A stretch of DNA of 64,000 nt from an uncultured Gammaproteobacteria bacterium (GTDB taxonomy: Bacteria; Patescibacteriota; Microgenomatia; UBA12405; JAHJSD01). The number at the start of each line of letters is the position of its first letter. The stretch's first letter is position 1. The notes beneath the pieces were generated by a model. That model was not told where the DNA came from, searched no databases, and saw only the letters and a list, made by a program, of their open reading frames with translations. Both the position numbers and the translations under genes were made by a program. This document shows positions 1 to 33,400 of the stretch, piece after piece. Where the stretch lies: contig CAZCGQ010000001.1 of the NCBI GenBank assembly GCA_964498425.1, forward strand, positions 163,063 through 227,062, given 5' to 3'.

Positions 1-958
1 CCCTTACTTCTTCCAAACCACGTCCGTCAATCCGATCTCCTTTTAGCATTCTTTTCCGAATCAACTTCTTAAATAAGGTGCGAACCGCTTGATCAACTAC
101 CTCCGAACCGTATTGTCCTTCATTTTTAAGTTCATCAATCAAACCGTCAATTAAACTAAAGTCCCCTTCTTTACGCTGATACATTTGATCAACGATATTA
201 TCAACGTCTCCTTCGATTTGAGACTGTAATTCCTCAATTTCTTTTTGCGGCGGTTTGTCATAATCCATCTTAGGTGTACCGGCTTCTTTTTGTAATTCAT
301 CCAAAGACTTAAGGATTTTGTCTCCTTCTTCTTTTGCCGCCTCAATTGCCCCTAAGAACTCTTCTTTAGGCAGTTGGTCAGCTCCACCTTCCATCATAAC
401 TACACCTTCTTTGCCAATTGTTACCAGCAAATCCAAATCTGAATTTTCTCTTTCTCCATTAGTCGGATTGACGAAATAATTGCCGTCCCGGTAAGCCATC
501 CGGATAACTCCAATCGGGCCGTCCCAGGGAATATCTGAAATATGAAGAGCCGCCGAAGCTCCTAGCGCAGCTAATACATCCGGGTCATTTTCATGATCAA
601 CAGAAAGAATCGTTGCTACAACCTGAGTTTCATTTTTAAATCCTTTTGGAAATAACGGTCGAATTGACCGGTCAATCATCCGGGCGGCTAAAACAGCTTC
701 GTCAGAGGGCTTTCCTTCTCTTTTTACCCACCGACTGCCTTTAATTATTCCACCAGCATAAAGACGCTCAACGTACTCTACGTACAGAGGGAAATAATCC
801 ATATCTGCACGGGATTGATTGGAAACAACTGTAACTAAAACAACTGTTCCTTCACACGAGACTTTAACAGCAGCATTCGCTTGATTGGCTAGTTTACCTG
901 TTTCGAGGACAACCTTCTTACCACCCAAGGAGAATTCCTTACTTATAATTTCATTCAT
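1..958 (-). CDS. pnp: Polynucleotide phosphorylase (PNPase), N-terminal ~319 aa; gene continues past the window start
   Basis: Minus-strand frame is open from the ATG at 958 to the window edge. My own translation reads MNEIISKEFSLGGKKVVLETGKLANQ...IDRSIRPLFPKGF...DGRGLEEVR, typical of the RNase-PH-like PNPase N-terminus. It sits in the canonical position directly downstream of rpsO. Confidence 0.85.
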   Translation of the reverse strand, partial: MNEIISKEFSLGGKKVVLETGKLANQANAAVKVSCEGTVVLVTVVSNQSRADMDYFPLYVEYVERLYAGGIIKGSRWVKREGKPSDEAVLAARMIDRSIRPLFPKGFKNETQVVATILSVDHENDPDVLAALGASAALHISDIPWDGPIGVIRMAYRDGNYFVNPTNGERENSDLDLLVTIGKEGVVMMEGGADQLPKEEFLGAIEAAKEEGDKILKSLDELQKEAGTPKMDYDKPPQKEIEELQSQIEGDVDNIVDQMYQRKEGDFSLIDGLIDELKNEGQYGSEVVDQAVRTLFKKLIRKRMLKGDRIDGRGLEEVR

Positions 959-976
959 CTTCTTGTCCGACTTATT

Positions 977-1246
977 TTATGCTTTTAACTTCAGTTTGTC
1001 AACCAGATCTTTATGTCTTTCTGGACTTCGTGAAGATAAATAACGCAATAATCTTCGTCTCTTAGCAATATCCTCAAGTAGAGCCATCTTCGCTGGAGTA
1101 TCATCTTTGTGCTCACCTAAATGCTCCTGCAAATTAGCTATCTTTTCAGTTAATAAAGCTACTTGAACCTCGGGAGAACCAGTGTCTCCCTTTTCTCGCT
1201 GAAACTTTTTAATGATTTTATCTTTTTTATCTTTGTCTAATGGCAT
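977..1246 (-). CDS. rpsO: 30S ribosomal protein S15
   Basis: Translation from the internal Met reads MPLDKDKKDKIIKKFQREKGDTGSPEVQVALLTEKIANLQEHL...RRRLLRYL, an S15 signature. The extra N-terminal residues of the listed ORF are upstream read-through. Confidence 0.9.
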   Translation of the reverse strand: MPLDKDKKDKIIKKFQREKGDTGSPEVQVALLTEKIANLQEHLGEHKDDTPAKMALLEDIAKRRRLLRYLSSRSPERHKDLVDKLKLKA

Positions 1247-1339
1247 ATTAAATGTTTCGTAACTAATAATAAACAAAAATCCGGCTGACCACAAGGATCA
1301 AACCGCATTACTCATAATTATAACATAGACCTAAGTCTA

Positions 1340-2206
1340 TTACTTTTTCGGAGTTGTAGCTCCTGTAAAAATTGGCGGTTTTTGCCACTCACTAACTGTT
1401 TTACCTTCCTTGCCTTCCGGCGAAGCTGACTCTTTCGCTTCTATTTCGCTTTCTTCAGCAACCGGCTTAGAAACAGGCCGTTGGCTGGATTGTTTTTCCT
1501 TTATCCTTAAGCAGTAAGCCGCTGTTTCCAAAGCAATAGAATCGGCCGTTTCAAAACCATTCGTACCCTTCTTTATTCCTTGGTAAAAATTATTGGCTGC
1601 TTTGGCCGGAATTTGAAAATCTCCCCGGCTAACCAAGGCAATTAATGACTCTGACAAACTAGCTTTATTCTCAACTACACTTACTTTGGCCCAATCTTTT
1701 TGATTATTGTTGTTTGATACCCAAACCCACTGTCCCTGTCCAGTTAAACCTTGCTCATTGGGCAAATTAACACCAACAATAAACCCTGCCGGGTAAGCCG
1801 GTTCCGGTTTCTTGATCTCAACATCCGCCGGGCTGACCGCCTGAGCATCAGGCCTAAAAATAACGTTTAACTTTAAGTTGTTACCTTCATCAACCCGGGC
1901 TACCCGTTCAATATCATCGATCGGGCACTTAAAAATTATTTCTAACTTTTTATCACCAGATTTAAGCTGATTCTTAAACTTTTCCAAACCATTTAATTCC
2001 GAATAATCACTGGCGTTAATTGTTTGAGGAGAGTAGAAATCAACTTCCTTACCTAAGCTCTCTAAAAGAATAGCTAAACCGCTGCCGGCAGCAATTGAAT
2101 CATAACTATCCGCTGCGACAGCAACTAAGAATTTATCATTATTTAAAATGATGCTGTTTGTTTGCTGAAACCGGTCGTCTTTTTGACCCTCAGTCTGCTT
2201 TTTCAT
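1340..2206 (-). CDS. DHH-family phosphoesterase-like protein (NrnA/RecJ-like fold, catalytic motifs degenerate)
   Basis: The N-terminus FLVAVAADSYDSIAAGSGLAILLESLG resembles DHH motif I/II (xPDxDxxGS) but has lost the His. No DHH triad is visible. Its position between infB and rpsO is where DHH nanoRNase genes sit in some actinobacterial operons. Confidence 0.35.
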   Translation of the reverse strand: MKKQTEGQKDDRFQQTNSIILNNDKFLVAVAADSYDSIAAGSGLAILLESLGKEVDFYSPQTINASDYSELNGLEKFKNQLKSGDKKLEIIFKCPIDDIERVARVDEGNNLKLNVIFRPDAQAVSPADVEIKKPEPAYPAGFIVGVNLPNEQGLTGQGQWVWVSNNNNQKDWAKVSVVENKASLSESLIALVSRGDFQIPAKAANNFYQGIKKGTNGFETADSIALETAAYCLRIKEKQSSQRPVSKPVAEESEIEAKESASPEGKEGKTVSEWQKPPIFTGATTPKK

Positions 2207-3614
2207 CCTTATAGGATATTATAACATCGCCTTTCCTAAAGTCAAGGGATGGGGAGAAGACTGCCCCGAACTCTTGGCCTTTGTTAGCTGTTTGAGTATC
2301 CTCTTTTCCGTGTCTCAATGAAGCCAAAACTGACTTAGCCACAACCTCTTCATTTCGCTGTAAAAAAACCTTTTGGCCTTGGTGAATCTTTCCTTCAACA
2401 ACTTCTCCGCCGGCAATTAACTTATCTCCCATTTTAAACTCCGCCAATATTTTGGCTTGACCCAAAATATCCTTGTTTTCCAGCGGGTCACGTTCCTCTT
2501 CCAACCGTTTTTCGATTTCTTCAAAAAGCTCATAAATAATATCGGCTTGTACAATTTCAACTTGACTTTGTTTGGCTAAACTTTTTACGGCTGAATTTAA
2601 CTTAACATTAAAAGCATAAATATTTGCCCCTGTGCTTTGGCCCATAAAAATATCTCTTTCAGTTACCGGTCCAACCCCGGAATTGATTACTTGAATTTCA
2701 TCCGGCAAGTTTGCCTTAATTGCTTCAATACTTCCACTAACATCGGTCTTTAAAATAACCTTTAACTTCCCCTCTTCTTCACCGACCTTTTCCATAACTT
2801 CCTGCGGTTCTTGAGGGGTCTTGCTGACTACCGCTCCAACAGGGGGAGCATCTTTAAAACCAAGAACTTCGACCGGGTCCCCAGGAAGTGCTTGGTCAAC
2901 CTGCTCTCCCCGCCAGTTAGTCAAAGCCCGCACTTTAGCTGGCATTTTTTCTGCATAAATTTCTTCGCCTCTTTTTAACTGGCCGTTTTTAACTAAGACT
3001 GTTGCTAGAGCTCCCCGCTGGCGGTCTAAACTGGATTCAATGACCACTCCCTTTAACTCTCCCTCCGGATCAGCTGTTAATTCTTCCATTTCTGCCATTA
3101 AATTAATCATTTCTAACAAATCATCTATTCCCTCACCTGTTTGAGCCGAGAGCGGGACAGCGACAATATCCCCACCGTAGTCTTCAGGAACAATACCGAT
3201 CTCGGACAACTGCCCTTTAACCTTATCAATGTTAGCGTCCGGTAAATCAATCTTATTTATTGCCACTAAGAAGGGAACCTCTGCCACTTGAATATACTTA
3301 TAGCTTTCTTCTGTTTGTTCTTGAACACCCTCATCAGCGGCAACGACCAAAATTACTAAGTCCGTGACCTCAACGCCCCTTGCTCTCATTTTAGAAAAGG
3401 CAGCGTGCCCGGGAGTATCAATGAAAGTTATTCCCTCAACTTGGTAGGCCCCAATATGCTGAGTAATACCACCTGGTTCACCTGAAGCTATTCGTGTCTG
3501 GCGGATTTTATCAAGAAGGGTAGTTTTACCGTGATCGATATGACCAACTAAAGCGACGACTGGGGGTCTGGTTATACTGGTAGTTTTCTTTTTTTTCTTT
3601 GCCTTTTTGGTCAT
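2190..3614 (-). CDS. infB: Translation initiation factor IF-2 (short form lacking the long N-terminal region)
   Basis: G-domain motifs VALVGHIDHGKTTLLD, DTPGH and NKID are present, followed by the IF2 C-terminal beta-barrel domains. It lies immediately downstream of nusA. Confidence 0.93.
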   Translation of the reverse strand: MTKKAKKKKKTTSITRPPVVALVGHIDHGKTTLLDKIRQTRIASGEPGGITQHIGAYQVEGITFIDTPGHAAFSKMRARGVEVTDLVILVVAADEGVQEQTEESYKYIQVAEVPFLVAINKIDLPDANIDKVKGQLSEIGIVPEDYGGDIVAVPLSAQTGEGIDDLLEMINLMAEMEELTADPEGELKGVVIESSLDRQRGALATVLVKNGQLKRGEEIYAEKMPAKVRALTNWRGEQVDQALPGDPVEVLGFKDAPPVGAVVSKTPQEPQEVMEKVGEEEGKLKVILKTDVSGSIEAIKANLPDEIQVINSGVGPVTERDIFMGQSTGANIYAFNVKLNSAVKSLAKQSQVEIVQADIIYELFEEIEKRLEEERDPLENKDILGQAKILAEFKMGDKLIAGGEVVEGKIHQGQKVFLQRNEEVVAKSVLASLRHGKEDTQTANKGQEFGAVFSPSLDFRKGDVIISYKDEKAD

Positions 3615-3628
3615 AGTAAACTCCTTGC

Positions 3629-4768
3629 CTATTCATCGCCGTTATCTTCGCTAATTTCTTCTTTTTCCTCGGAATTTCCTTCTTTATCACTAACATCCTC
3701 TAATCCTTCATCCTCGTCCTCACTCTTCTCCTCAGTATTCTCTTCCTCATCACTAGATTCCTCTTTCACTTCTTTCTTTCCTTCTTTAGGTTCTACCTTT
3801 ATTTGATAGCCAGTTAATTCTCCAGCTAGAGAAACATTTTCTCCCCCATCACCAATTGCCATTGCTAATTCCTCTTCTGCAACTTTTACAACTGCTTTCT
3901 TTTCCTCATCATCAACAGTAACCACTTCTACATCATCAGCCGGAGATAGAGCAGAGGCGATAAAATTATCGGTTTGCTTACTGTAAGGGATAACATCAAT
4001 CTTTTCATCATTAAGCTCCTTTATTACCGCCTGAACCCTTACCCCTTTTTGACCAACACATGATCCAACCGGATCAACCCCAGGCTGGTTAGAATCAACT
4101 GCAATCTTCGTTCGTTGACCTGGACGTCGAGCCACATGCTTAATTTCAACTGCTTCTGAATTCACTTCTGGGACTTCACGTTTAAACAATCCAACCACTA
4201 GCTCCGGTGAAGCTCGAGAAACAATAATTGTTTTTTGCTGTTCGTCTTCGGCAATTTCCTTAACATAAAAAGAAAGGTGTCGTGAAGAGTAGTAGTCCTC
4301 TCCCTTTACCTGTTCGCTTTTGGGCATTTCGGCTTCTGCCTTGCCAATACCAACGATTATTTTTGGCCCCTCATGGCGTAAAATTACACCTCGAACTAAA
4401 GTGCCAACCTGGTCCTTAAACTGGGAAATCAACGAATCTTTCTCTGCTTCTCTGATTTTCTGAAGAATTACCTGCTTGGCGGTTTGGGCAGCAATTCGGC
4501 CAAATCCGGGAGGAGTTACATCCTCTACTTCCCCGTCCTCATCTTCATAAATAATCTTAGTTTCTCCGGTTTCCGAATCCAACTCTATCTTATATTCTCC
4601 TTCTTCTTTCAGCTCTTCTTCTCTCTCGCGCACATCCCGACGAAAGGCAGCCAGTATTGCTTCCTGAACAGAAGAAATAACCACTTCTGTGTCAATATTG
4701 CGCTCACCGGCAATTTGAGCAACCGCAGCTGCAAATTCAGTTTTCGGAATTTTCTTCAAATCAATCAT
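3629..4768 (-). CDS. nusA: Transcription termination/antitermination factor NusA with an acidic C-terminal tail
   Basis: Shows the NusA N-terminal domain and S1/KH regions (MIDLKKIPKTEF...GERNIDTEVV...VGQKGVRVQAV). Sits in the nusA-infB gene order. Confidence 0.9.
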   Translation of the reverse strand: MIDLKKIPKTEFAAAVAQIAGERNIDTEVVISSVQEAILAAFRRDVREREEELKEEGEYKIELDSETGETKIIYEDEDGEVEDVTPPGFGRIAAQTAKQVILQKIREAEKDSLISQFKDQVGTLVRGVILRHEGPKIIVGIGKAEAEMPKSEQVKGEDYYSSRHLSFYVKEIAEDEQQKTIIVSRASPELVVGLFKREVPEVNSEAVEIKHVARRPGQRTKIAVDSNQPGVDPVGSCVGQKGVRVQAVIKELNDEKIDVIPYSKQTDNFIASALSPADDVEVVTVDDEEKKAVVKVAEEELAMAIGDGGENVSLAGELTGYQIKVEPKEGKKEVKEESSDEEENTEEKSEDEDEGLEDVSDKEGNSEEKEEISEDNGDE

Positions 4769-4888
4769 ATCTGTTGCAGTTTACCAAATACGAAGTTAAA
4801 TATCAATCATACCCCTCACCTCTTAATAAGATTAACACCGCCTAAGCACTAAATACTATAATGAAACGAATCATTGTAGTCTTTGAAT

Positions 4889-6148
4889 TTAGGTTTTTCT
4901 GCTTTTGAGCTTTTTGTGAAGATATTTCTGGGCGAAGCGGTGGGCTTCGTCACGAGCAACCTGAAGAAGCTTCAGGGCCGGAGAGTTTTTGGGCAAGTTC
5001 ACCCGATTAACTCCACCAATCTTATTTCCTTGAATTTTTGGAATAACCAATGTTTCTTTCTCCTTCGCCAAACCGATTAAACCCGTTTCACCCAAAATAT
5101 CGAATTGGCGTAGAACCGGGACAACCGCTCTTAACTGCGGTCTACCACCATCAATGAGAATTAACTGTGGGTATAACCACTCTTCGTGGTTCAAACGTCT
5201 GGTCAGTACCTCCGCTAAAGCCCTCGGATCGTCCTGTCCCTGCCGGCGAATCTTAAACATCCGATACTGACTGGAATCAATTTCACCATTCATTAATACG
5301 GTCATTGCCCCAACAATTAACTTGTCTGACAAGTTAGCAATATCATAGGCCTCAATCCGCTGAAGGTAAAACGGATCAACACCTTGATTGGCAATCAACA
5401 ACCTCTTTATTTTTTTTAATCCGGTATCAATTTTCAGCTCCTGGCCAGACAGGCGTTTAGAAGAATAAATAATTCTCTCCAGCTGGTCAATTTGATTTTT
5501 AATTTCCTGGGCCTGCTCAAACTGCTGATTATCAGCATATTCTTCCATTTCACTTTTCAAGCGATTGAGCAATTCTTCGGATTGGCCTGAAAAAAACAAT
5601 ATAATATTGTTAATGTTTTCCATATACTCTTCTTTGCTGACAATTCCCGGTCCCGGACAAAGGTCAATTTGGTAATAAAGGCAGGGTCTCTTTCTGCCCG
5701 GAGAGCAGGAACAGTAAGGAAATATCCGTCTTATCCACCGTAATAACTGCTTTAAAGCCGCTGAGGAAGGAAACGGACCGGCCCAAAATTTTAAGCTCTC
5801 TAGCTCCGGCCGACGAACAACCTTAATTCTAGGATATTCATCATCAGTAATTCCCAAATACAAATGCCGCTTGCCGTCCTTTAACTGGACATTGTATTTC
5901 GGCTTATACTGCTTGATCAATTTTGCCTCTACTACTGTTGCCATTGCTTCTGAAGTAGTTTCATTCCAATCAACACTCTCTGCTTTGGCAAGCATTTTTT
6001 CGGTTTTAATATCAACCGGATCACGGAAATACTGCCTTATTCTCGAACGCAAACTCGTTGCTTTGCCGACATACAGAACTTTGTTGTTTTTGTCCTTAAA
6101 CCAGTACACACCTGGTTTCCGCGGTACCTTCTTAAAATCAACTTTCAT
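4889..6148 (-). CDS. uvrC: Excinuclease ABC subunit C (short form lacking the C-terminal (HhH)2 domain)
   Basis: Has the GIY-YIG N-terminus (PGVYWFKDKNNKVLYVGKATSLRSRIRQYF), a UVR domain (QQFEQAQEIKNQIDQLE) and the endonuclease-domain motif ARDEAHRFA near the C-terminus. It is 419 aa versus ~600 typical. Confidence 0.85.
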   Translation of the reverse strand: MKVDFKKVPRKPGVYWFKDKNNKVLYVGKATSLRSRIRQYFRDPVDIKTEKMLAKAESVDWNETTSEAMATVVEAKLIKQYKPKYNVQLKDGKRHLYLGITDDEYPRIKVVRRPELESLKFWAGPFPSSAALKQLLRWIRRIFPYCSCSPGRKRPCLYYQIDLCPGPGIVSKEEYMENINNIILFFSGQSEELLNRLKSEMEEYADNQQFEQAQEIKNQIDQLERIIYSSKRLSGQELKIDTGLKKIKRLLIANQGVDPFYLQRIEAYDIANLSDKLIVGAMTVLMNGEIDSSQYRMFKIRRQGQDDPRALAEVLTRRLNHEEWLYPQLILIDGGRPQLRAVVPVLRQFDILGETGLIGLAKEKETLVIPKIQGNKIGGVNRVNLPKNSPALKLLQVARDEAHRFAQKYLHKKLKSRKT

Positions 6149-6164
6149 AGTTATAGTCTCATTT

Positions 6165-6192
6165 GTAGGGACAATCCTAGGATTGTCCCTAC
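6165..6192. repeat. 28-bp perfect palindrome GTAGGGACAATCCTAGGATTGTCCCTAC (copy 1)
   Basis: Read directly. Lies in the 50-nt uvrA stop / uvrC start spacer. Confidence 0.8.
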
Positions 6193-6198
6193 CATTAA

Positions 6199-8847
6199 TT
6201 ACAAATATTTTCTGGTGATTGAGGCGTCGATTGTTTTCAATTCCTCTGGTGTACCTTCGGCAATGAGATGACCACCAGCATTGCCGCCAGTTGGACCAAG
6301 TTCAACTACCCAATCTGCCTGCCGAATAATCTCCAGACTGTGTTCGATAATAATAATAGTATGCCCGCGGTCAATCAGCTTTCGCAAAACCGCCAAAAGT
6401 TTCTCCAAATCAGCGTAATGCAAGCCAGTCGTCGGCTCATCAAGCAAATAAACTGTCGGCTTATTTTTTTTCTTAACCAACTCCCTGGCTAATTTTAATC
6501 TCTGTGCCTCCCCGCCAGACAAGGTCGGAGAAATCTGGCCCAGCTCCAGATAACCCAAGCCAATGTTCGATAAAAGATCCAACTTGGACTTTATCTTCGG
6601 GTGTTTGGCAAAAAAATCAACTGCTTCATCAACTGTCATTTCTAAAACCTCGGCAATATTCTTTCCACGATAACCAATTTCCAAAACCGCTTCTTTATAC
6701 CTTGCCCCATCGCACTCTTCACATTTAACTGAAACATCCGGCAAAAACTCCATTTTTATTTCAATTTCACCCCTGCCCTCGCAATGGGGACACCGACCCT
6801 TTTTAACGTTAAATGAAAAATGGCTTTTGGTGAACCCCTTTAACTTTGATTCTTTGGTTTCGGCGAATAAATCACGAATATCATCAAAAACACCAATGTA
6901 AGTTGCCGGGTTGCTTCTTGAAGACCGACCAATCGGACTTTGATCAACAATCAATGCTCGCTCAATTTTTTCAAACCCCTTTAATGAACTATGCTCCCCA
7001 GCCTGTTGATGAAAATGGCCATAAATCTCACGTTTTAGAGCCGGGTATAGGGTGTCTTTAACCAAAGTTGATTTGCCAGAACCAGAAACCCCAGCAACCA
7101 CCGACATCGCTCCTAAAGGAAACTTGGCAGAAATATTTTTTAAATTATGCTCCTGACAGCCTAATATTTCCAACCACTGGGTATCCTCACTAATACTTTT
7201 TTTGCCCAAATCCTTAACTTTTTTTCTTCCACTTAAATAACCACCGGTCAAAGATTTCTCATTCTCCATTAATTCTTCCGGCGCTTGAGCGGCAACAATA
7301 TTTCCACCCTTCTTGCCCGCTCCTGGACCAAATTCAATTAAGTAATCGGCCTGGTTGAGAACATTTTCGTCATGCTCAACTAATATAACTGTATTGCCCA
7401 AATCCCTCAATCGTTCCAAAGTTTTAGTTAACCTGCCGATGTCGTGGGGATGTAAACCGATTGTCGGCTCATCAAGAATATAAAGGACGCCGGTTAAGCC
7501 CGTCCCAAGTTGACTGGCCAAATTAATTCGCTGGGCTTCACCGGCTGACAAAGTAGTTGCCTCACGAGACAAGGTCAGATAATCAACCCCAACAGCAATT
7601 AAAAAATCAACCCGTGATTCCAACTCAGAAATAATCAATTCCGCTACCTTTTGGTCAAATATAGAATCCAAATTTCTTAAACCCCTAATCCAATCCAGCA
7701 ACTCCTGTAAAGACATTTCCGATACCTGAGCGATATTCAAATCATCAACAACAACCGACCGAGGTTCATCCTTAAGTCTTGTCCCCTGACATTCCGAACA
7801 AGTTTGTTTAACCATATATTTTTCTAGATGCCGACGAAGGGAATCATAACGGGTTGTCAGATACTGCCGCTTAATTTTTCTTGCCTTGGCCGGTGAAACC
7901 TGACTTAAATCCGGCTTTAAAATCATTCCTAATCCACGACATTTGGGGCAGGCCCCAAGAGGAGAATTAAATGAAAATAATCGCGGCCGAAGCGGCGGCA
8001 AAGAAATTTGGCAGTTGGGACAAGAAAACTGCCGTGAATAGAGAGTGTCTTCAACCTTCTTTGGTCGGTCCGGAAAATCAAAACCGGCATCATTAATCTG
8101 GGATAAAACTGCTAATCCATCAGATAACTCGAAAGCAATTTCGATATCATCAACCAAACGCTGACTAAAGTCCTTTTCATTATCCGGCACGCTGGTTAAA
8201 TTAATTTTGTCAACAACAACACTAATGTTATGGCGATTAGTCCGGATTAAAACGATATCTTCGTCAAGGTAATAAAACTGGTTGTCAATTCGCACCTGCT
8301 GAAAACCTTTTTTAGCCAAGTTTGTGAATAATTGACTAAATTCCCCCTTTTTGCTCCGAACAACCGGCGATAGAATTAAAAATCTGGCCTTACCTTGAGT
8401 GGCAATTAAATTCTGAACCTCGGTAAAGATCTGATCAGCAACCTGCTGAGGGGTCTGACGCTCAATCGGCTGACCGCAAGACGGACATTGGGGCGTGCCA
8501 ATCTTTGCATAAAGCAAACGTAAATAATCATAAACCTCGGTTGCCGTACCAACAGTTGACCGCGGGTTATGTGATAACCCTTTTTGGTCAATGGCAATTG
8601 CTGGCGATAAACCATCGATTTGGTCAACATCCGGCTTAGAAGCAACTCCTAAGAATTGCCGGGCGTAGGTGTTTAAGGACTGGACATACCGACGTTGACC
8701 CTCAGCAAAGAGGGTATCCATGGCTAAACTAGATTTTCCGGAACCAGAAACACCGCAAAAAACAATCAATTTGTTTTTGGGAATCTCCAAATCAACGTTT
8801 TTTAGGTTGTGTTCCCGTGCTCCTTTGATTTTAATTTTATCTTCCAT
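6199..8847 (-). CDS. uvrA: Excinuclease ABC subunit A
   Basis: Two ABC ATPase modules (GVSGSGKSSLA and GVSGSGKSTLV), ABC signature motifs and Zn-finger cysteines. Length is 882 aa. Confidence 0.93.
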   Translation of the reverse strand: MEDKIKIKGAREHNLKNVDLEIPKNKLIVFCGVSGSGKSSLAMDTLFAEGQRRYVQSLNTYARQFLGVASKPDVDQIDGLSPAIAIDQKGLSHNPRSTVGTATEVYDYLRLLYAKIGTPQCPSCGQPIERQTPQQVADQIFTEVQNLIATQGKARFLILSPVVRSKKGEFSQLFTNLAKKGFQQVRIDNQFYYLDEDIVLIRTNRHNISVVVDKINLTSVPDNEKDFSQRLVDDIEIAFELSDGLAVLSQINDAGFDFPDRPKKVEDTLYSRQFSCPNCQISLPPLRPRLFSFNSPLGACPKCRGLGMILKPDLSQVSPAKARKIKRQYLTTRYDSLRRHLEKYMVKQTCSECQGTRLKDEPRSVVVDDLNIAQVSEMSLQELLDWIRGLRNLDSIFDQKVAELIISELESRVDFLIAVGVDYLTLSREATTLSAGEAQRINLASQLGTGLTGVLYILDEPTIGLHPHDIGRLTKTLERLRDLGNTVILVEHDENVLNQADYLIEFGPGAGKKGGNIVAAQAPEELMENEKSLTGGYLSGRKKVKDLGKKSISEDTQWLEILGCQEHNLKNISAKFPLGAMSVVAGVSGSGKSTLVKDTLYPALKREIYGHFHQQAGEHSSLKGFEKIERALIVDQSPIGRSSRSNPATYIGVFDDIRDLFAETKESKLKGFTKSHFSFNVKKGRCPHCEGRGEIEIKMEFLPDVSVKCEECDGARYKEAVLEIGYRGKNIAEVLEMTVDEAVDFFAKHPKIKSKLDLLSNIGLGYLELGQISPTLSGGEAQRLKLARELVKKKNKPTVYLLDEPTTGLHYADLEKLLAVLRKLIDRGHTIIIIEHSLEIIRQADWVVELGPTGGNAGGHLIAEGTPEELKTIDASITRKYL

Positions 8848-8884: not shown

Positions 8885-8940
8885 CCCCAAGGTTCAAACC
8901 TAGACAACCTTCAAGGTTGATTGCTACCTGAACCTTGGGT
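8885..8940 (-). terminator. Compound hairpin downstream of uvrB (CCCAAGGTTCA...TGAACCTTGGG with an inner CAACC-TTCAA-GGTTG)
   Basis: An 11-bp inverted repeat enclosing a second hairpin, followed on the minus strand by the U-rich TTGAAATTTGTC. Confidence 0.35.
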
Positions 8941-8941
8941 A

Positions 8942-10945
8942 TTAATGCAGCCAGGCTTTTAACTTGTCGATTTCGTCCCGAACGCGAGCAGCTTTTTCAA
9001 ACTCCAACTCCCCTGCCAATTTATTCATTCTCCGGGTTAATTCAGAAATTTTTTCTTTGATTTCTTTTGGAGTTAAGGCTTCCGGATCAATCTTTAAGGG
9101 CTGATCATCACGCTGACTCCAACCAGGAACAATTTCTCCTCTAATCGGCTTTTTGATCGTTTCTGGAGTAATACCATGTTTCTGATTATATTCCAACTGA
9201 ACTTTCCGCCGACGATTAACCTCAGAGATTGCCTCTTTCATTGCATCGGTACGTTTGTCTGCATATAAAATTACCTCTCCGGCAGAATTTCTCGCCGCCC
9301 GACCCATTGTCTGGATTAAAGAAATCTTTGACCGCAAAAAACCGGAAATGTCAGCATCCAGAATTGCTACCAAAGAAACTTCCGGTAAATCCAAACCCTC
9401 TCTCAATAAATTTACTCCAACCAAAACATCATATTCACCTTTACGCAAATCTGTTAAAATTTGGCTTCGTTCAAGAGAATCCACATCAGAATGAATGTAC
9501 TGAACTTTGATGTCAGCGTCTCCAGTATGCTCCGGGTCATTTAAATATCGGGACAAATCCTCGGCTAACCGCTTAGTTAATGTTGTCACTAGCACTCGCT
9601 CTTTCTTCTTTTTGCGATTAATAATTTCTGCTATCACGTCCTCTACTTGTTTAGCTGTCGGCCGGATATCAATTTCCGGCTCAACCAATCCTGTCGGCCG
9701 GATTAACTGCTCAACAACCCGTCCATCCGCCTTATCCTTTTCCCAATCCCGAGGCGTAGCAGACGAATAGATAACCTGACTGGCCCGAGCAATAAATTCA
9801 TCAAATTTCAACGGCCGATTATCCAAAGCCGAGGGCAGTCGAAAGCCAAAATCAATCAAAGTCTGCTTTCGAGACTGATCACCACGGTACATGCCACCAA
9901 TCTGAGGAACAGTAATGTGTGATTCATCAATAACAATTAAAAAGTCGTCGCCAAAGGCATGTTGATAGTAATCTAGTAGGGTGTGCGGCGGGTCACCAGG
10001 TTCACGGTTATCAAAATAACGGGAATAGTTTTCAATACCCTTAACATACCCCATTTCCTGAATCATCTCCATGTCGTATTCAACCCGCTGTTCTAACCGC
10101 TGAGCCTCGACCAAATTTCCTTCTTCCTTTAGCTCGTTAACCCGGTCAATTAAATCCCGCCGGATTTCTTTAACCGCCGGCTGAATAATATCCGGGTCGG
10201 TTAAGTAATGTTTAGCCGGATAAACTACGGCATTATCAACCTTTTTTTTCTCACCGGAAAAAACACCCCGAGTCGCCAGCTCGCTAATCCGGTTATCGTT
10301 ATATTTAATTTCTAGAATTTCCTCGGAATAAGCGGGAAATATCTGAACTAGATTACCTCGTTGTCGAAATTGGCCGCGAGCCAACTCCCAACGGTTAGCC
10401 ATATAATGCATATCAACTAACTTTTCTTTCAACTTCTGCGGTGAAATTTGCTTGCCCGGCTCTAGTTCAAGGACATATCGTTTATATTCCAGCGGTGAAC
10501 CAAGATTGTAAATACAAGACACCGAGGCAACAATAATTACGTCATCGCGAGACAAAATCTGACTGGTTGCTTTTAACCGCAACTTATCAATTTCCTCATT
10601 AACTTCTGTTTCTTTAGCAATATAGGTATCAGTTTGCGGCAGATATGATTCCGGCAAATAGTAGTCATAATAAGAAATAAAAAAACCAACGGCATTATTA
10701 GGAAAAAAGTCCCGGAATTCCTGATAAAGCTGAGCGGCCAAGGTTTTGTTGTGAGAAATCACCAGGGTTGGTTTCTGGGTATTAGCAATGACATTAGCAA
10801 TCGTGAAAGTTTTACCACTTCCGGTTACCCCAAGTAAAACTTGATCTTTAATATCCTGATTAATTCCCTCTGTCAATTTTTCAATTGCCTGAGGCTGGTC
10901 ACCAGTCGGTTGAAAATCCGCCGTAAGTTCAAATTTCATCGCCAT
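8942..10945 (-). CDS. uvrB: Excinuclease ABC subunit B
   Basis: Helicase motifs (LLGVTGSGKTFT, DESH), a beta-hairpin region and a C-terminal UVR domain (KAARVRDEIDKLK). Confidence 0.93.
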   Translation of the reverse strand: MAMKFELTADFQPTGDQPQAIEKLTEGINQDIKDQVLLGVTGSGKTFTIANVIANTQKPTLVISHNKTLAAQLYQEFRDFFPNNAVGFFISYYDYYLPESYLPQTDTYIAKETEVNEEIDKLRLKATSQILSRDDVIIVASVSCIYNLGSPLEYKRYVLELEPGKQISPQKLKEKLVDMHYMANRWELARGQFRQRGNLVQIFPAYSEEILEIKYNDNRISELATRGVFSGEKKKVDNAVVYPAKHYLTDPDIIQPAVKEIRRDLIDRVNELKEEGNLVEAQRLEQRVEYDMEMIQEMGYVKGIENYSRYFDNREPGDPPHTLLDYYQHAFGDDFLIVIDESHITVPQIGGMYRGDQSRKQTLIDFGFRLPSALDNRPLKFDEFIARASQVIYSSATPRDWEKDKADGRVVEQLIRPTGLVEPEIDIRPTAKQVEDVIAEIINRKKKKERVLVTTLTKRLAEDLSRYLNDPEHTGDADIKVQYIHSDVDSLERSQILTDLRKGEYDVLVGVNLLREGLDLPEVSLVAILDADISGFLRSKISLIQTMGRAARNSAGEVILYADKRTDAMKEAISEVNRRRKVQLEYNQKHGITPETIKKPIRGEIVPGWSQRDDQPLKIDPEALTPKEIKEKISELTRRMNKLAGELEFEKAARVRDEIDKLKAWLH

Positions 10946-11032
10946 TTATTCTATCACGCACACCTATCTCTTACTTCAAAACACTATAATCAAACGAATG
11001 ATTGTAGTTATTACCGCATATTTTTTAGGAGG

Positions 11033-11734
11033 TTATTTTTTGCCGGTTTCTAATTTTTTGCGAGTTTCACGAACGGCAATCGCTGGAAGTGAATCTTCGT
11101 TTTCATTAAGGTAATCCTCAACTAGTTGGTGATGTTTTTTAGTCATCTCCCGCAATAACCAGGATATTGCTTTGGTAATCAACTTATCATCTTCGGATTT
11201 CAACCCTTGAATATTTTCTAACGCCAAATCAGTAAGCCGGATATCTTCTGAATCCCGAACCGGCTTAACCAAAAGAACTAATGACGCTCGACGCTTAGAA
11301 ATATTTTGGCTTTGGTTAAACCTTTTTAGCCATTTTTTCCATTCCTGCCAATTATCCAATAGTTCCTGAGCAGTAAAGGTTGATTGACATAATCCATCAA
11401 TTTCCGCCCAACCCTCTAGCTCATCAAGCCATTGATCCAATTTTGCTGGATTAATTTTTCTTCTTTGTTTGGTCATGTACCCAAGAAGCATTCCAGCTAA
11501 AGTTTTTTCATCATAGGATTTGCCTTGAAACAAAGAATTTAGAAGAGCTACAAATTCGTCAACAGAAATATCCTTATTATCCTTTTTCCACGCTTTGGCA
11601 ATTTCTCTTTTCTGGGGATTGGATAAACCATAGTTTTGGTGGCTGCTTCCTAAATATCCTTTCGGCGGTTCTTTATCAATATTATCCGCCACTTTTTTGA
11701 TTTCTGCCAACAATTCAAGATGATGCTTATTCAT
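11033..11734 (-). CDS. DNA alkylation repair protein (AlkD/AlkC-like HEAT-repeat glycosylase family)
   Basis: All-helical protein with an ISWLLREM-type motif and W/K-rich helices typical of the PF08713 DNA_alkylation family. The start is set at MNKHHLELL (11734). The longer ORF starting at 11779 would begin inside a 14-bp palindrome. Confidence 0.5.
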   Translation of the reverse strand: MNKHHLELLAEIKKVADNIDKEPPKGYLGSSHQNYGLSNPQKREIAKAWKKDNKDISVDEFVALLNSLFQGKSYDEKTLAGMLLGYMTKQRRKINPAKLDQWLDELEGWAEIDGLCQSTFTAQELLDNWQEWKKWLKRFNQSQNISKRRASLVLLVKPVRDSEDIRLTDLALENIQGLKSEDDKLITKAISWLLREMTKKHHQLVEDYLNENEDSLPAIAVRETRKKLETGKK

Positions 11735-11783
11735 AACAAATTTTATCACAAACAAAAACAGTCTGATGATTCGAATCATTAGA

Positions 11784-11996
11784 CTATTCTAAAGATTTTT
11801 TCTGGCACATTATTCCCAATCGAGAATCGGGAATGTATTGATCATACATCTTCTCTTCATCTTCACGAGACCGAGGTTCTTCACCACTATTTAACCTCAG
11901 CTGAATATCAATTTGGCGGGGAGTTGCCAAACGCCTGGTAGAATCACTTGTTTCTCCACTGTGGGCTTTGCGCACCCTTTCTTCCCAGCTCGTCAT
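11784..11996 (-). CDS. Hypothetical small protein (70 aa)
   Basis: ORF only; no recognisable motif. Low-complexity charged sequence. Confidence 0.2.
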   Translation of the reverse strand: MTSWEERVRKAHSGETSDSTRRLATPRQIDIQLRLNSGEEPRSREDEEKMYDQYIPDSRLGIMCQKKSLE

Positions 11997-17531: not shown

Positions 17532-20477
17532 GTGTTAGAATTGGCCATGGCAAGAATTGATGAGATTGTCTTGAACAAGGAGCAAAAAGAAGCCGTTCAC
17601 TATCAAAAGGGCCCATTGTTAATAATAGCTGGTGCCGGAACAGGAAAAACAACCGTCATCACCGAAAGAATCAAATGGTTGGTTACTGAAAAGGGGCTAA
17701 ATCCTTCACAAATTCTCGCCCTCACCTTTACTGAAAAAGCGGCTAAAGAAATGGAAGAGAGGGTCGACCAGGCCATGCCCCTTGGCTATGCTCAATATTG
17801 GATTTCCACCTTTCATTCCTTTGGCGACCGGATTCTTCGGGATAATGCCCATCATATCGGCCTTAATCCAAACTTTAAATTAATGAGTGAAGCAGAATCT
17901 GTTCTATTTCTTCGACAAAACATGTATGAACTAGACTTGAATTATTTCCGGCCTGTTTCTAATCCGAACAAATTTTTAGGCGGAATTATTTCCCACTTTT
18001 CCCGACTTCACGACGAAGACATCTCGCCAAAGCAGTATTTGGAATATGCTAAAAAGAAATCCAAAAAAGCTAATAGCGAAGAAACGGAATTAGACGCGGC
18101 CAAAACAATGGAGCTGGCCAAAACCTACAAGAAATATCAATCGATTAAACATAAAGCTGGCTTTTTCGATTTTGCTGATTTAATAACCTCCACTTTAAAA
18201 CTTTTTCGTCAACGGCCAAATGTTCTTAAGGAATACAAATCCAAATTCAAGTTTGTTCTTGTCGATGAGTTTCAAGACACAAACATCGCTCAATATGAAT
18301 TAATCAAACTTCTTGCCCCACCAGACGAAAAACCAAATTTAACCGTCACTGGAGATGACAGCCAATCCATCTACAAATTTCGGGGGGCAGCCATCTCCAA
18401 TATTTTGTCATTCAGAGAAGATTACCACGACCCAAAAACCGTTGTCTTGACCAACAACTATCGATCCTCTCAAACTATTCTTGATCACGCCTACCAGTTA
18501 ATTCAAAAGAATAATCCTGATACCTTGGAATCTAAACTGGGTATTTCCAAAAACTTATCCAGCACTAGAAAAAATATCAACCAAGAAATCGGTTTATTTT
18601 TCCCCAAAACCGGCGAGGACGAAGCGGAATCAATTGTTCGAGAAATCGAACAATTGATCGCTAAAGGCTCAGGGCCTAAAGCTCAAGGCTATGAATACAA
18701 AGATGTGGCGATACTTGTTCGGGCCAACAACCATTCTCAGCCCTTTACCCGCGCCTTAGTTCGTCATGGTATTCCGTACCAATTTTTAGGACCAGGTAAA
18801 CTTTTTCGTCAACCAGAAATTAAAAATCTAATTGCTTATTTAAAAATCCTCATTAACCCGGCTGATGATATTGCCTTTTTTAAAGTTGCTTCAATGCCAA
18901 TTTTTAACATTTCCGCTCGAGATTTAGCCTTTCTGAGAAGCAAAGCCAAAAAGGAAAATTTATCGCTTTTAGAAGCGGCTGAAAATGAAAAAATGGAAAA
19001 TGAAAAAATGGAAAAATTTGTGGAGATGTACCATCGACATCTTGATCTTCTTTCTCAAGAAACTGGCGGACAAATTCTCTATTATTTCGTTGAAGACAGC
19101 GGCTGGCTAAAGTCACTCCTAAAACCTTCAACGGAAACCGAACACCAGCAGTCACTAAATTTAGCTAAATTTTTTGATCGGGTTAAAAATTTTGAAACCG
19201 ACAACGAGGAGGCAACTGCCTTTCATCTCCTTGATTGGATAACTCTTCGCCTAGAAATGGGCGAAAGCCCAACCGCCTCAGAAACGGATTGGACAGAAAA
19301 TAATGCCGTTAACATTTTAACTGTTCACTCCGCTAAGGGCTTAGAATTTCCAGTCGTTTTCATGGTAAATTTGGTTAACCGGCGGTTCCCAACCACCAAT
19401 CGTCGCGAAAAAATTCCCCTTCCCCAGCCCTTAATTAAAGAACACCTCCCGGAAGGCGACCCACATGAACAAGAAGAACGACGCCTTTTCTATGTCGGGA
19501 TGACCCGGGCAATGGATCAACTATATTTCAGTGGAGCAAAATATTACGGCGACGCTAAACGCCAAAAAAAACTATCCCCCTTTGTTTATGAATCCCTTGG
19601 AAAAGAAACAGCAGAAAAATTAATTTCTTCCTCCGAAACTCAAGCCTCTAGCGAGCAATCCCCATTATTTTCTTGGAAAAAACCGGAAGAAAAAAGCCAA
19701 CCGCCAAAATTGAGCCAAACCATTAACTACTTATCTTATTCCCAAATGGATTCTTTTGGAATATGTCCACTTCAGTATAAGTACAAATACCTTCTTCGCC
19801 TACCTTCACCGCCATCTCCAGCCCAAACAATAGGGAGTGTTATCCATCAAACTCTCAAGGAATTTTACCAACGGCAGATGACAGCAAAAAAGAAATTTGA
19901 CCAAAATAAAATGGCGTCAATTTTAATGGAAAATTGGTCCTCAAACGGTTTTGACAATAAAACCCAAGAGAAAGAAGCAAAAGAAGAAGCACTAGAAATG
20001 TTAACTAACTATTACCAACAAGAGTTAACTGACGAACCTCTACCAAATGTTGCCGCTTTAGAAAAGCCATTCAGCTTAAAAATCAGCCAGCAACTAAAAA
20101 TTGGTGGAATAATTGACCGAGCCGACATTTTGGATAACGGAGAAGTAGAAATCATCGATTATAAAACCGGCAGTCGGATCCCAAATCAAAAGGCTGTCGA
20201 TAATAATGACCAGCTGACACTTTACGCCCTAGCCGTTAGTTTAGCTGAAAATTTTCCTTGGCACCGGCCAATCGATAAGATTAAACTGAGTCTGTATTTT
20301 CTTAGAGAAGGAGTTAAGCTTTCCAGCCGACGGACAAAAGAAGAAGCCGAAGAAATAAAACAAAAAATTATTGATACCGCTAAAGAAATTGAACAAAGCA
20401 ATTTCCCGCCTGATCCTGGCATACCCTTTCCTTGCAACTGGTGTGAGTATAAGCTCCTCTGCGACGCCTGGGAATAA
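17532..20477 (+). CDS. UvrD/PcrA-family helicase fused to a C-terminal PD-(D/E)XK (Cas4/AddB-like) nuclease domain with a 4-Cys Fe-S cluster
   Basis: Helicase motifs (AGAGTGKTT, the DEFQDT Walker B, and TVHSAKGLEFPVV). C-terminal motifs: CPLQYKYKYL, IDRADILDNGEVEIIDYKTG and CNWCEYKLLC. Confidence 0.8.
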   Translation: MLELAMARIDEIVLNKEQKEAVHYQKGPLLIIAGAGTGKTTVITERIKWLVTEKGLNPSQILALTFTEKAAKEMEERVDQAMPLGYAQYWISTFHSFGDRILRDNAHHIGLNPNFKLMSEAESVLFLRQNMYELDLNYFRPVSNPNKFLGGIISHFSRLHDEDISPKQYLEYAKKKSKKANSEETELDAAKTMELAKTYKKYQSIKHKAGFFDFADLITSTLKLFRQRPNVLKEYKSKFKFVLVDEFQDTNIAQYELIKLLAPPDEKPNLTVTGDDSQSIYKFRGAAISNILSFREDYHDPKTVVLTNNYRSSQTILDHAYQLIQKNNPDTLESKLGISKNLSSTRKNINQEIGLFFPKTGEDEAESIVREIEQLIAKGSGPKAQGYEYKDVAILVRANNHSQPFTRALVRHGIPYQFLGPGKLFRQPEIKNLIAYLKILINPADDIAFFKVASMPIFNISARDLAFLRSKAKKENLSLLEAAENEKMENEKMEKFVEMYHRHLDLLSQETGGQILYYFVEDSGWLKSLLKPSTETEHQQSLNLAKFFDRVKNFETDNEEATAFHLLDWITLRLEMGESPTASETDWTENNAVNILTVHSAKGLEFPVVFMVNLVNRRFPTTNRREKIPLPQPLIKEHLPEGDPHEQEERRLFYVGMTRAMDQLYFSGAKYYGDAKRQKKLSPFVYESLGKETAEKLISSSETQASSEQSPLFSWKKPEEKSQPPKLSQTINYLSYSQMDSFGICPLQYKYKYLLRLPSPPSPAQTIGSVIHQTLKEFYQRQMTAKKKFDQNKMASILMENWSSNGFDNKTQEKEAKEEALEMLTNYYQQELTDEPLPNVAALEKPFSLKISQQLKIGGIIDRADILDNGEVEIIDYKTGSRIPNQKAVDNNDQLTLYALAVSLAENFPWHRPIDKIKLSLYFLREGVKLSSRRTKEEAEEIKQKIIDTAKEIEQSNFPPDPGIPFPCNWCEYKLLCDAWE

Positions 20478-24338: not shown

Positions 24339-26264
24339 TTACCATTCTTCCAACCAATCGTCATCGTCCCAATCCCAATCATCTAAACCCTCCTTCATTT
24401 CTTCTCGAATTACCAAATGATTTGGAATGTTTTCTAAAAACCGGGAAGGCGAATTGTAATTAGTTTTACCAAAATACAACCTCTTAGCGGCGTAAGTAAG
24501 ATAGAGAGAAGATTTTGCCCGAGTCATCCCAACATAACACAAACGCCGTTCTTCCTCCAGTTCCTCTTTATCCATCATACTTCGTGAATGCGGCAGCAAA
24601 CCTTCTTCCATTCCGGCAATAAAAACTGCCTGAAATTCCAGCCCTTTACTAGAATGAAGCGTCATTAGTCTTACCGCCTGATCAGCTGTGTCCTTTTTTC
24701 TCTTTTCCTGGACAGAGTATTCCTGCTGAACTAAAGCAACACTTTCTAAAAAGTCCTTTAAATCTGGAAACTGCTGAGCAACCGAGGACAGTTCACGAAT
24801 ATTCTCTAAACGCCGATAATCATCCTTGTCTTCTTGATTGTATTTGTCTAAATATCGACTGGCCGGCAAAATCCGATTAAGAACCTCTTCACTGGTATAT
24901 TGATTTGACCTATTTTCTTCAATAAATTCCCTAACCCGCCGCATACGCCTTACCCCCATATTTTTCTCAATCCTCTCCCAAGAAATTACATCATCAGGGT
25001 TATACCACACTCTGATTAAAGCTAGAACATCCTTGATTTCAGCTCGCTGATAAAATTTAACCCCTCCATACAAAATATAAGGCAAGCCGTGATGAATGAA
25101 AGCGTCTTCAAGTGTTCGGGATTGAGCATTGGTTCGATAAAGAACAGCAATTTCTTTGGGATCAATCTTATCCTCATTTATTAATTTTTTTATCTCTTCG
25201 ACAATGAAATTTGCCTCACCAGATTCGTCCTTGGCCTGATGAATAACTATCTTTTTACCAGATTTTTTTTCGGTGTATAGATTTAAAACCGGATGAAGTT
25301 CATTATAGGAAATAATTTTGTTGGCAGCATCAAGAATGGTTTGCGTTGAGCGATAATTCTGTTCTAAGTTTATTACAGTTGTTTCCGAAAAGTCCTTTTT
25401 GAGAGCAGACAAGTTACGATAGTCAGCTCCACGCCATGAATATATTGCTTGTGCGGCGTCACCAACCACCGTCAAGCTCTGATGCTTTCCTGCTAATAAC
25501 TTGGTCATAACGTATTGAGACTTATTCGTATCTTGATATTCATCAATAAGAATATGCTGAAATTTGCTCTGATATTTTCCTAATACTTCAGAATTTTCTT
25601 TCAACATTTTTACGGTTAAGTAAAGTAAATCTCCAAAATCCAAAGCATTAGCCTGACTCAATTTATCCTGATAATTTTTATAAACCAAACCAACATTTTC
25701 TTGCCATTGGTCACTGGCTGAATCTAGAAACACCTTCCAATCAATCAAATCATTCTTGGCGGAGTTTATTATTGAATTTAAAGCTTTAGGTCGATATTTT
25801 TTTTCGGGCAAATTTAGTTTCTTGATAATATTTTTCAATAAAGACAATTGGTCTTTTTGATCATAAATAACGAAGTTAGCTGACAACCCTACTCTTCTCC
25901 CTTCTCGTCGCAAAATGTATACCCCAAAAGAATGAAAGGTACCAGCGAAAAGATTAGGGGAACCAGACACCTCCGAGGTGGAATTATTTTCTCCTCGGAC
26001 GGTGTTTGCTAATAACTTTCCCAACCGCTCTTTCATTTCCCCGGCAGCTTTGTTAGTAAAGGTTAACAAGAGCAAACCACCATTTTTTACCCTACCATTA
26101 GCTAAAAGCCAAGCCACTCGGTGGGTTAAAACTCGGGTCTTCCCACTTCCCGCCCCGGCTAAAACTAAAAGCGGCCCTTTGCCGTCAAAAGTTACTGCCT
26201 GCTGTTGATCCTCGTTTAAATCTCTTAATAATTCCTCCATAGCAACATCAATTGTAGCAAACAT
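24339..26264 (-). CDS. pcrA: ATP-dependent DNA helicase UvrD/PcrA
   Basis: LNEDQQQAV...LAGAGSGKTRVLTHR, DEYQDTN and VGMTRAK motifs. Acidic W/D-rich tail. Confidence 0.88.
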   Translation of the reverse strand: MFATIDVAMEELLRDLNEDQQQAVTFDGKGPLLVLAGAGSGKTRVLTHRVAWLLANGRVKNGGLLLLTFTNKAAGEMKERLGKLLANTVRGENNSTSEVSGSPNLFAGTFHSFGVYILRREGRRVGLSANFVIYDQKDQLSLLKNIIKKLNLPEKKYRPKALNSIINSAKNDLIDWKVFLDSASDQWQENVGLVYKNYQDKLSQANALDFGDLLYLTVKMLKENSEVLGKYQSKFQHILIDEYQDTNKSQYVMTKLLAGKHQSLTVVGDAAQAIYSWRGADYRNLSALKKDFSETTVINLEQNYRSTQTILDAANKIISYNELHPVLNLYTEKKSGKKIVIHQAKDESGEANFIVEEIKKLINEDKIDPKEIAVLYRTNAQSRTLEDAFIHHGLPYILYGGVKFYQRAEIKDVLALIRVWYNPDDVISWERIEKNMGVRRMRRVREFIEENRSNQYTSEEVLNRILPASRYLDKYNQEDKDDYRRLENIRELSSVAQQFPDLKDFLESVALVQQEYSVQEKRKKDTADQAVRLMTLHSSKGLEFQAVFIAGMEEGLLPHSRSMMDKEELEEERRLCYVGMTRAKSSLYLTYAAKRLYFGKTNYNSPSRFLENIPNHLVIREEMKEGLDDWDWDDDDWLEEW

Positions 26265-26293: not shown

Positions 26294-26321
26294 GTAGGGA
26301 CAATCCTAGGATTGTCCCTAC
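26294..26321. repeat. 28-bp perfect palindrome GTAGGGACAATCCTAGGATTGTCCCTAC (copy 2)
   Basis: Identical to copy 1. Lies between the YYY-GT stop and the pcrA start. Confidence 0.8.
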
Positions 26322-33229: not shown

Positions 33230-33370
33230 AGCTTAATTTTAGCAAAATCTTAAGCACTAATTCCTAAACTCTAAATAATACCCAATTATCAAAGCCCAAA
33301 TATTTAAACTAATCCGGACATTTTTATTTTGAATTTGTTTAGGATTTAGATATTAGAGATTAGAATTTGA

Positions 33371-33394
33371 TTCTAGAATATCGATATTCTAGAA
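33371..33394. promoter_or_regulatory. 24-bp perfect palindrome TTCTAGAATATCGATATTCTAGAA
   Basis: Read directly from the sequence. Ends 6 nt before the UDG ATG at 33401. Confidence 0.5.
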
Positions 33395-33400
33395 TGTCTC

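Follow-up and report, generated by a model that had tools for sequence, protein, structure and literature searches.

TrpR and HisR bind palindromic operators and regulate their own genes (PMC9413887). The motifs of HisR are lineage-specific and palindromic, with cac...gtg ends (cacTTTAnnnnnnTAAAgtg), and about half of the cases are autoregulated (PMC9413887). Very little is known of transcriptional control in CPR bacteria (Patescibacteria), which cannot be grown alone, and the present analysis offers a concrete and testable pair of regulator and operator for this group. The window, by which we mean the whole 64-kb stretch of DNA that was analysed, contains three palindromes, S1, S2 and S3. With a probability of roughly 0.7, we consider these to be double-stranded DNA operators of a helix-turn-helix regulator of the TrpR/YerC family, which is widespread in CPR bacteria and whose gene lies outside the window. 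A literature search returned no description of a CPR TrpR-like regulon, of this subfamily or of its sites.

Three palindromes and their surroundings

S1 (4855-4880; ACTATAATGAAACGAATCATTGTAGT, reading ACTACAATGATTCGTTTCATTATAGT on the minus strand, which is the gene strand) and S2 (10983-11008; ACTATAATCAAACGAATGATTGTAGT, minus strand ACTACAATCATTCGTTTGATTATAGT) have PWM scores of 38.2 and 37.2 and lie at the uvrC/nusA junction and upstream of uvrB, respectively. The sequences, the coordinates and the identity at 24 of 26 positions are as described in the first-pass annotation of this DNA, and the two differences consist of G..C versus C..G at mirror positions 9 and 18. The same annotation had drawn a stem with 8-bp arms. 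The palindrome and its 6-nt centre were borne out, whereas the arms are 10 bp long (ACTATAATSA and TSATTGTAGT, where S is G or C) and include a single asymmetric position, which is T.G in the plus-strand reading and C.A in that of the minus strand. S3 (11760-11785; AGTCTGATGATTCGAATCATTAGACT) is a 26-nt palindrome with 12 of 13 positions paired. It had been proposed as a third relative and is indeed one, as it has the same dyad centre as S1, between C and G, and is identical to S1 at 18 of 26 positions. The outer arms of S3 (AGTCT) are of the type found beside the K/R subfamily of the regulator described below (L042, L048).

The 26-mer pattern, with at most three mismatches, matched twice in the window, against 0.00 matches expected from 100 shuffles, and the 16-mer core, with at most two mismatches, gave 10 strand-hits against 1.33 expected. 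A PWM scan and a generic core-plus-symmetry scan of the 64 kb returned S1, S2 and S3 only, with nothing else above background. Rfam at gathering thresholds returned only three tRNAs in the whole window and no match at S1-S3. A TACAAT hexamer had been noted on the minus strand of all three sites; it is present in S1 and S2, whereas S3 has TCTAAT. No clear -35 box was seen at S1-S3. TATAGT occurs on the gene strand of S1 and S2, but, because the -35 regions of these two sites are poor and the copy in the related locus L003 has TGTAGT, we make no promoter claim for S1-S3.

The genes of this region follow one another on the minus strand in the order 70-aa ORF, S3, AlkD-like gene, S2, uvrB, uvrA, uvrC, S1, nusA and infB. 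The placement of the sites at minus-strand repair genes and nusA was confirmed: the gene calls are supported by Pfam, and S1-S3 are intergenic, each starting 0-24 nt past a stop codon and ending 24-86 nt before the next start. S1 starts 8 nt past the stop codon of uvrC (4889-6148, minus strand; Pfam) and ends 86 nt before the ATG of nusA (3629-4768, minus strand; Pfam NusA_N and KH_5), its candidate target, which is followed by infB. S2 starts 24 nt past the stop codon of alkD, and 37 nt separate it from the ATG of its candidate target uvrB (8942-10945, minus strand; Pfam UvrB, UvrB_inter and Helicase_C), the first gene of uvrB-uvrA-uvrC, of which uvrA occupies 6199-8847 (minus strand; Pfam). 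The AlkD-like DNA alkylation repair gene (11033-11735, minus strand; Pfam DNA_alkylation, E 8e-34) has S3 on its 5' side and S2 on its 3' side. Its listed ATG, at 11779, is inside palindrome S3; the probable start (MNKHH) is at 11735, about 24 nt beyond the end of S3. At its other end, S3 overlaps the stop codon of the 70-aa ORF (11784-11996, minus strand), which has no Pfam match and is kept beside uvrB in relatives, with 61% identity to an 84-aa ORF in L103 and a related ORF in L102. The window scan found no S-type site at uvrA, uvrC or the UvrD/PcrA gene.

Several further features of the region were observed. A mini-ORF (ATGATTGATATTTAA, encoding MIDI and a stop) is located at 4796-4810 on the minus strand, 27 nt upstream of nusA, and is preceded by a strong Shine-Dalgarno sequence, AAGAGGTGAGGGG. 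The start of nusA reads ATGATTGATTTG, where no evident ribosome-binding site was seen. The motif (A/G)TGATTGATATTTAG is kept in L003 and L099, and L104 has ATTGATATTTAG. A perfect 28-bp palindrome, GTAGGGACAATCCTAGGATTGTCCCTAC, occurs twice, at 6165-6192 between the uvrA stop and the uvrC start, and at 26294-26321 just upstream of a UvrD/PcrA-type helicase gene (24339-26264). Both copies are followed by TACAA(T/A), and the palindrome was found in none of the relatives examined. A perfect 26-bp palindrome, ATTCTAGAATATCGATATTCTAGAAT (33370-33395), stops 5 nt short of the ATG of a gene of the uracil-DNA-glycosylase family (33401-34030), and its right arm, TAGAAT, could be the -10 box of a leaderless transcript. 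Between uvrB and uvrA, a 48-nt element, AAGGTTCAGGTAGCAATCAACCTTGAAGGTTGTCTAGGTTTGAACCTT, is located at 8889-8936 on the minus strand. It is present at the same junction in four relatives (L099 11808, L102 12023, L103 12004 and L104 5812) and twice elsewhere in L007 (1578 and 2347), and in L099 its outer stem shows a compensatory change from GGTTCA/TGAACC to GGTTTA/TAAACC. This element, which has no match in Rfam, may be a structured RNA or a repeat. Finally, a 30-nt perfect hairpin-type palindrome containing GTTCG...CGAAC, ATCAATTGTTCGAGAAATCGAACAATTGAT, lies at 18629-18658, inside an AddA-like helicase-nuclease gene (17532-20477).

A TrpR-like gene between two palindromes

An exact-pattern scan with TAYAATSATTCGWWTSATTRTA of 185,579 genomes, each representing one bacterial species, returned 18 loci, eleven of which come from the clade of the window itself or from other CPR MAGs. 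Eight of the 18 belong to three MAGs closely related to the organism of the window, and two more to Shapirobacteria and Curtissbacteria. The bases beyond the search pattern are conserved too (cACTAYAAT...ATTGTAGTg). Matches in Sulfurimonadaceae, Planctomycetaceae, Bacteroidota, Flavobacteriales, Acholeplasmataceae and Gracilibacillus were set aside, as they lie inside ORFs and look like chance. A number of the loci used here (L001-L003, L005, L007, L012, L014, L018 and L101) are from MAGs that were deposited as 'uncultured Gammaproteobacteria bacterium' and are syntenic with the window. Since their genes are of the CPR type and their best protein hits are to Patescibacteria/Microgenomates, this label is probably wrong.

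At three loci (L005, L014 and L015), the site adjoins a gene of 144-146 aa belonging to PF01371 (Trp_repressor). The site lies on both sides of this gene in L014, and between this gene and recA in L015. For the clade of the window, the regulator gene was found only in close relatives that have the identical 26-mer (L005, L014 and L019); tblastn detected it neither in the 64-kb window nor in syntenic uvrB loci.

A search with the alignment of the regulator protein recovered 80 metagenomic loci. A palindrome with at least 10 of 13 positions paired was found no more than 100 nt before the regulator ATG at 67 of these loci, usually 2-25 nt away, and one with at least 9 of 13 after the regulator stop codon at 75 of the 80, usually within 2-9 nt. 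Random 206-nt windows of the same loci, used as a control, reach 10/13 in 3.4% of cases. The palindrome is associated very tightly with the regulator gene, on both sides, and this nearly universal architecture, in which a site precedes the start codon and another immediately follows the stop codon, is unusual. The centres of the two sites are mostly 474-529 bp apart, and both sites of a given locus belong to one lineage-specific type. Each site comprises ACTnnnATGATnn and nnATCATnnnAGT on either side of the dyad centre and spans 26-28 bp, the general form being t-RYT-nnn-ATGAT-ny to the left of the centre and rn-ATCAT-nnn-ARY-a to the right. In L042 and L048, it is a palindrome of the S3 type that brackets the regulator gene. 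The downstream site is kept even where the next gene is convergent, and thus is not simply the operator of the neighbour. The neighbours vary by clade: one clade has recA, another has genes for an M23 peptidase and a lamin-tail-domain protein, and others have a pseudouridine synthase gene.

With regard to the protein, members of the family are 144-150 aa long and score 43-51 bits with Pfam Trp_repressor, for which the cutoff is 27. Homologues annotated as 'YerC/YecD family TrpR-related protein' are found in Curtissbacteria, Levybacteria, Gottesmanbacteria and other Patescibacteria, and the TrpR/YerC-family regulator is widespread in CPR bacteria of the Patescibacteria, Microgenomates type. Compared with the PDB, the family profile retrieves the TrpR-like structures 3kor, 3g1c and 3frw at E values of about 1e-13. 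The AlphaFold model has a pLDDT of about 93 over residues 11-100 and gives target-normalised TM-scores of 0.75-0.84 against 3kor, 3g1c and the E. coli TrpR-operator complexes; the best-matching structures include 1trr, a tandem-binding complex of TrpR with a half-site. On the basis of profile and model, the bracketed protein is predicted to have the TrpR fold. In the model, its C-terminal extension of 40-50 aa forms a long helix and ends in a basic tail that is disordered.

The core of the site differs between subfamilies of the regulator. The recognition helix VS[K/R]xT is found with a TGG core and AGT/GGT arms, ISDPT with an ATACTGT core, and VSTxT..R with an ATGTATT core. Judging from these sequences, the core co-varies with the recognition helix, as direct read-out predicts, in a correlation confounded by shared ancestry. 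The result is a defined protein family together with a 26-28 bp site model whose lineage variants track the recognition helix. Where clear TTGACA-N17/18-TAnnnT promoters are present, the site is found overlapping the -10 box, within the spacer or just downstream, and sites at such promoters occupy repressor-type positions. In some lineages, the outer arms coincide with TTGACT-N17-TAnAGT.

Repair genes, rival readings and the operator model

The sites at repair genes are less constant than those at the regulator gene. L003 is syntenic with positions 786-4812 of the window at 70% DNA identity and keeps S1 upstream of nusA at 25 of 26 positions; among the relatives examined, the nusA-upstream site is found in the window and L003 only. 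The region of uvrB was compared in ten lineages, namely the window and nine distinct related loci, L103 and L104 being counted once because they have the same UvrB. Three of the seven lineages with UvrB at least 73% identical have the uvrB-upstream site (the window, L099 and L103/L104), which in L099 and L103/L104 lies 47-58 nt upstream of uvrB. It is absent in the close lineages L101, L102, L105 and L109 and in three more distant Microgenomates loci, L106-L108. In L099, which lacks alkD at this place, one site of each type, S1/S2-like and S3-like, is found upstream of uvrB. Other copies in relatives precede a radical-SAM gene or lie between rpsI and alr, and the target genes vary between close relatives. 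The proposed association with repair genes in relatives is thus weakly supported by these counts. A conserved repair regulon was rejected, as the comparison of ten syntenic or related uvrB loci was mostly negative, and as a conserved feature the link of these sequences to DNA repair is patchy and weak.

Some copies are found in frame inside coding regions (L054 13136, L068 19729, L007 3423, L012 296 and L018 2585). The encoded peptide is TTMIRII in miaA and HYNDSND(C/Y) in genes of two glycosyltransferase families, with GT1 and PMT_2 genes among the hosts; the window has no orthologues of these genes for direct comparison. The copies in miaA and GT1 presumably leave the protein at its typical length, according to a comparison by eye with sequences of the MiaA and GT1 families. 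Being in frame and, by this comparison, without lengthening of the protein, the intragenic copies look as if they had arisen in place and had not been inserted.

The first-pass annotation had left the choice between a selected RNA hairpin and a symmetric protein operator, and it is the operator that the evidence supports. As a hairpin, the element would act in transcripts of the minus strand as a terminator, an attenuator or a stem-loop that stabilises the mRNA, placed either in the leader of nusA, uvrB and alkD or at the 3' end of uvrC, alkD and orf70. We regard this as unlikely, even though the arms are self-complementary, the start of S1-S3 0-24 nt past a stop codon is shared by the site after the regulator gene, convergent junctions included, some symmetric double substitutions distinguish paired sites, and S3 folds at -13.4 kcal/mol (z = -3.7). 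The gene-strand folds of S1 and S2, in contrast, reach only -6.6 kcal/mol (z = -1.4 and -0.6), no better than shuffles, because the asymmetric pair is C.A on that strand. A consensus terminator scan gave no match on S1-S3, and T-tracts are not enriched after 56 distinct downstream sites (4.0 of 12 positions are T on the sense strand and 3.25 on the antisense strand); with such weak folds, an intrinsic terminator was rejected. Arm mismatches on the sense strand comprise 48 of the G.T type and 41 of the A.C type, a balance that favours neither strand. The swap between S1 and S2 had been read as the signature of covariation. Among 15 copies from the window and close relatives, however, the S positions are complementary in six and non-complementary (G..G or C..C) in nine. 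The choice of G or C is neutral for symmetry because each S sits in the middle of AATSATT, a sub-palindrome of 7 bp, and, if S is free, two given sites show such a swap by chance about once in eight. One 'compensatory' pair, seen when two copies of a palindrome are compared, lends weak support to an RNA structure. Non-compensatory changes at homologous loci, named beforehand as speaking against a hairpin, are seen, the L103 site upstream of uvrB being symmetric at 10 of 13 positions. Most sites are symmetric through the very centre (TTCGAA, TTTAAA, ATATAT), which is not needed by a loop, and the asymmetric centre TTCGTT is found pointing either towards or away from the gene downstream. In several lineages the left arm is itself the -10 box, or the site lies in the promoter spacer, so that the transcript would not contain the whole palindrome. 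At the variable 'nnn' arm positions, the paired sites of a locus differ by 28 compensatory doubles, 16 other doubles and 103 singles, the count of double changes being inflated by the choice of the best palindrome per region. These symmetric doubles are more numerous than expected; a plain dimer model does not require them.

Alternatively, the element could be a REP-like extragenic palindrome whose spread or maintenance is tied to the small gene between its copies, with no regulatory role for the neighbouring repair genes. Two copies flank the regulator gene, as REP elements flank their transposase gene, presence among close relatives is patchy, and some copies directly follow a stop codon or separate convergent genes. 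The copy number is low, however, with three in 64 kb and one to five strict copies per related MAG, and the bracketed gene encodes a predicted helix-turn-helix protein of the TrpR fold and not an HUH/tyrosine transposase. The site co-varies with the recognition helix, and where copies lie inside miaA, GT1 and PMT_2 genes, the reading frame is kept; for miaA and GT1, a protein length that is, by eye, typical of the family led us to reject insertion of a mobile element. This origin therefore appears improbable. A third possibility is a LexA (SOS) box or a site for some other repair regulator already known. The location in front of uvrB and of an alkylation-repair gene would fit, as would that in front of recA in a Curtissbacteria-type clade, and Patescibacteria have been reported to possess an SOS-type network (Sanchez-Osuna et al. 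2017, as cited in PMC7739468). Nevertheless, the tight partner is a TrpR-like gene and not a lexA gene, and the uvrB site is missing in most relatives, with none at the uvrA, uvrC and UvrD/PcrA genes of the window. The consensus motifs of LexA are CTGT-N8-ACAG and CGAAC-N4-GTTCG. By eye, S1-S3 resemble neither of these two motifs. Half-sites or spacing likewise do not fit the Fur, ArgR, cre/LacI-type, CIRCE and NrdR boxes. A site of this kind is very improbable.

The preferred reading is that S1-S3 are DNA operators. The regulator would probably bind as a symmetric dimer or as a dimer of dimers, reading in each half-site an inner module, (A)ATGAT/ATCAT(T), and an outer ACT/AGT, over 26-28 bp in total. 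Protein bound at the orf70/alkD, alkD/uvrB and uvrC/nusA junctions would most likely repress or insulate alkD, uvrB-uvrA-uvrC and nusA-infB in response to a small-molecule signal. We consider such ligand-dependent repression or insulation most likely on the analogy of TrpR and HisR, palindrome-binding proteins that are frequently autoregulated. Physical binding, repression rather than activation, and looping between paired sites are what we infer from sequence and from this analogy. S3 probably belongs to a second paralogue of the regulator; two paralogues are suspected because the arm type of S3 (AGTCT) is that of the K/R subfamily and because both site types are present upstream of uvrB in L099. 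A broader scheme would make the TrpR-fold regulator gene between its two operators, possibly joined in a loop of about 480 bp, a LexA-independent switch for repair genes in Microgenomates-type CPR bacteria (uvrBAC and alkD here, recA in Curtissbacteria-like lineages), with two paralogues of distinct arm type converging on the uvrB region. We put this forward as a doubtful extension. The site model would allow regulon reconstruction across hundreds of CPR genomes.

Comparison with REPtrons, HisR and TrpR

REPtrons resemble the present arrangement in that a short junction palindrome is placed on both sides of one particular small gene. In contrast to REPtrons, the CPR element has a low copy number, a gene for a helix-turn-helix regulator in the place of the transposase gene, and in-frame intragenic copies without insertion.

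HisR (YerC) of Firmicutes and other phyla comprises the closest relatives in sequence and structure (3kor, 3g1c and 3frw). The HisR motif measures 20 bp (cacTTTA-N6-TAAAgtg) and is located upstream of genes for histidine biosynthesis and transport, whereas the CPR sites measure 26-28 bp and are not canonical HisR operators. Unlike those of HisR, the CPR sites lie beside uvrB, alkD, nusA, recA, radical-SAM and glycosyltransferase genes, with no his genes seen.

E. coli TrpR shares with the CPR system the six-helix fold, which is predicted for the CPR protein, a palindromic site, and the position of a site before the regulator's own gene. Its operators are those of trp, aroH and trpR, whereas no tryptophan genes are found near the CPR sites. 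The half-site of E. coli TrpR is GNACT, of which the outer half-site ACT of the CPR palindrome is reminiscent. The E. coli operators are 18-20 bp long with 8 bp between the half-sites (PMC9413887); the CPR sites span 26-28 bp, with ACT...AGT 20 bp apart. In contrast to the E. coli operators, the CPR site exhibits an additional conserved inner module, ATGAT/ATCAT, which gives two modules per half-site. The CPR protein also differs from E. coli TrpR in its C-terminal extension of 40-50 aa, and its gene in having a second site right after its own stop codon.
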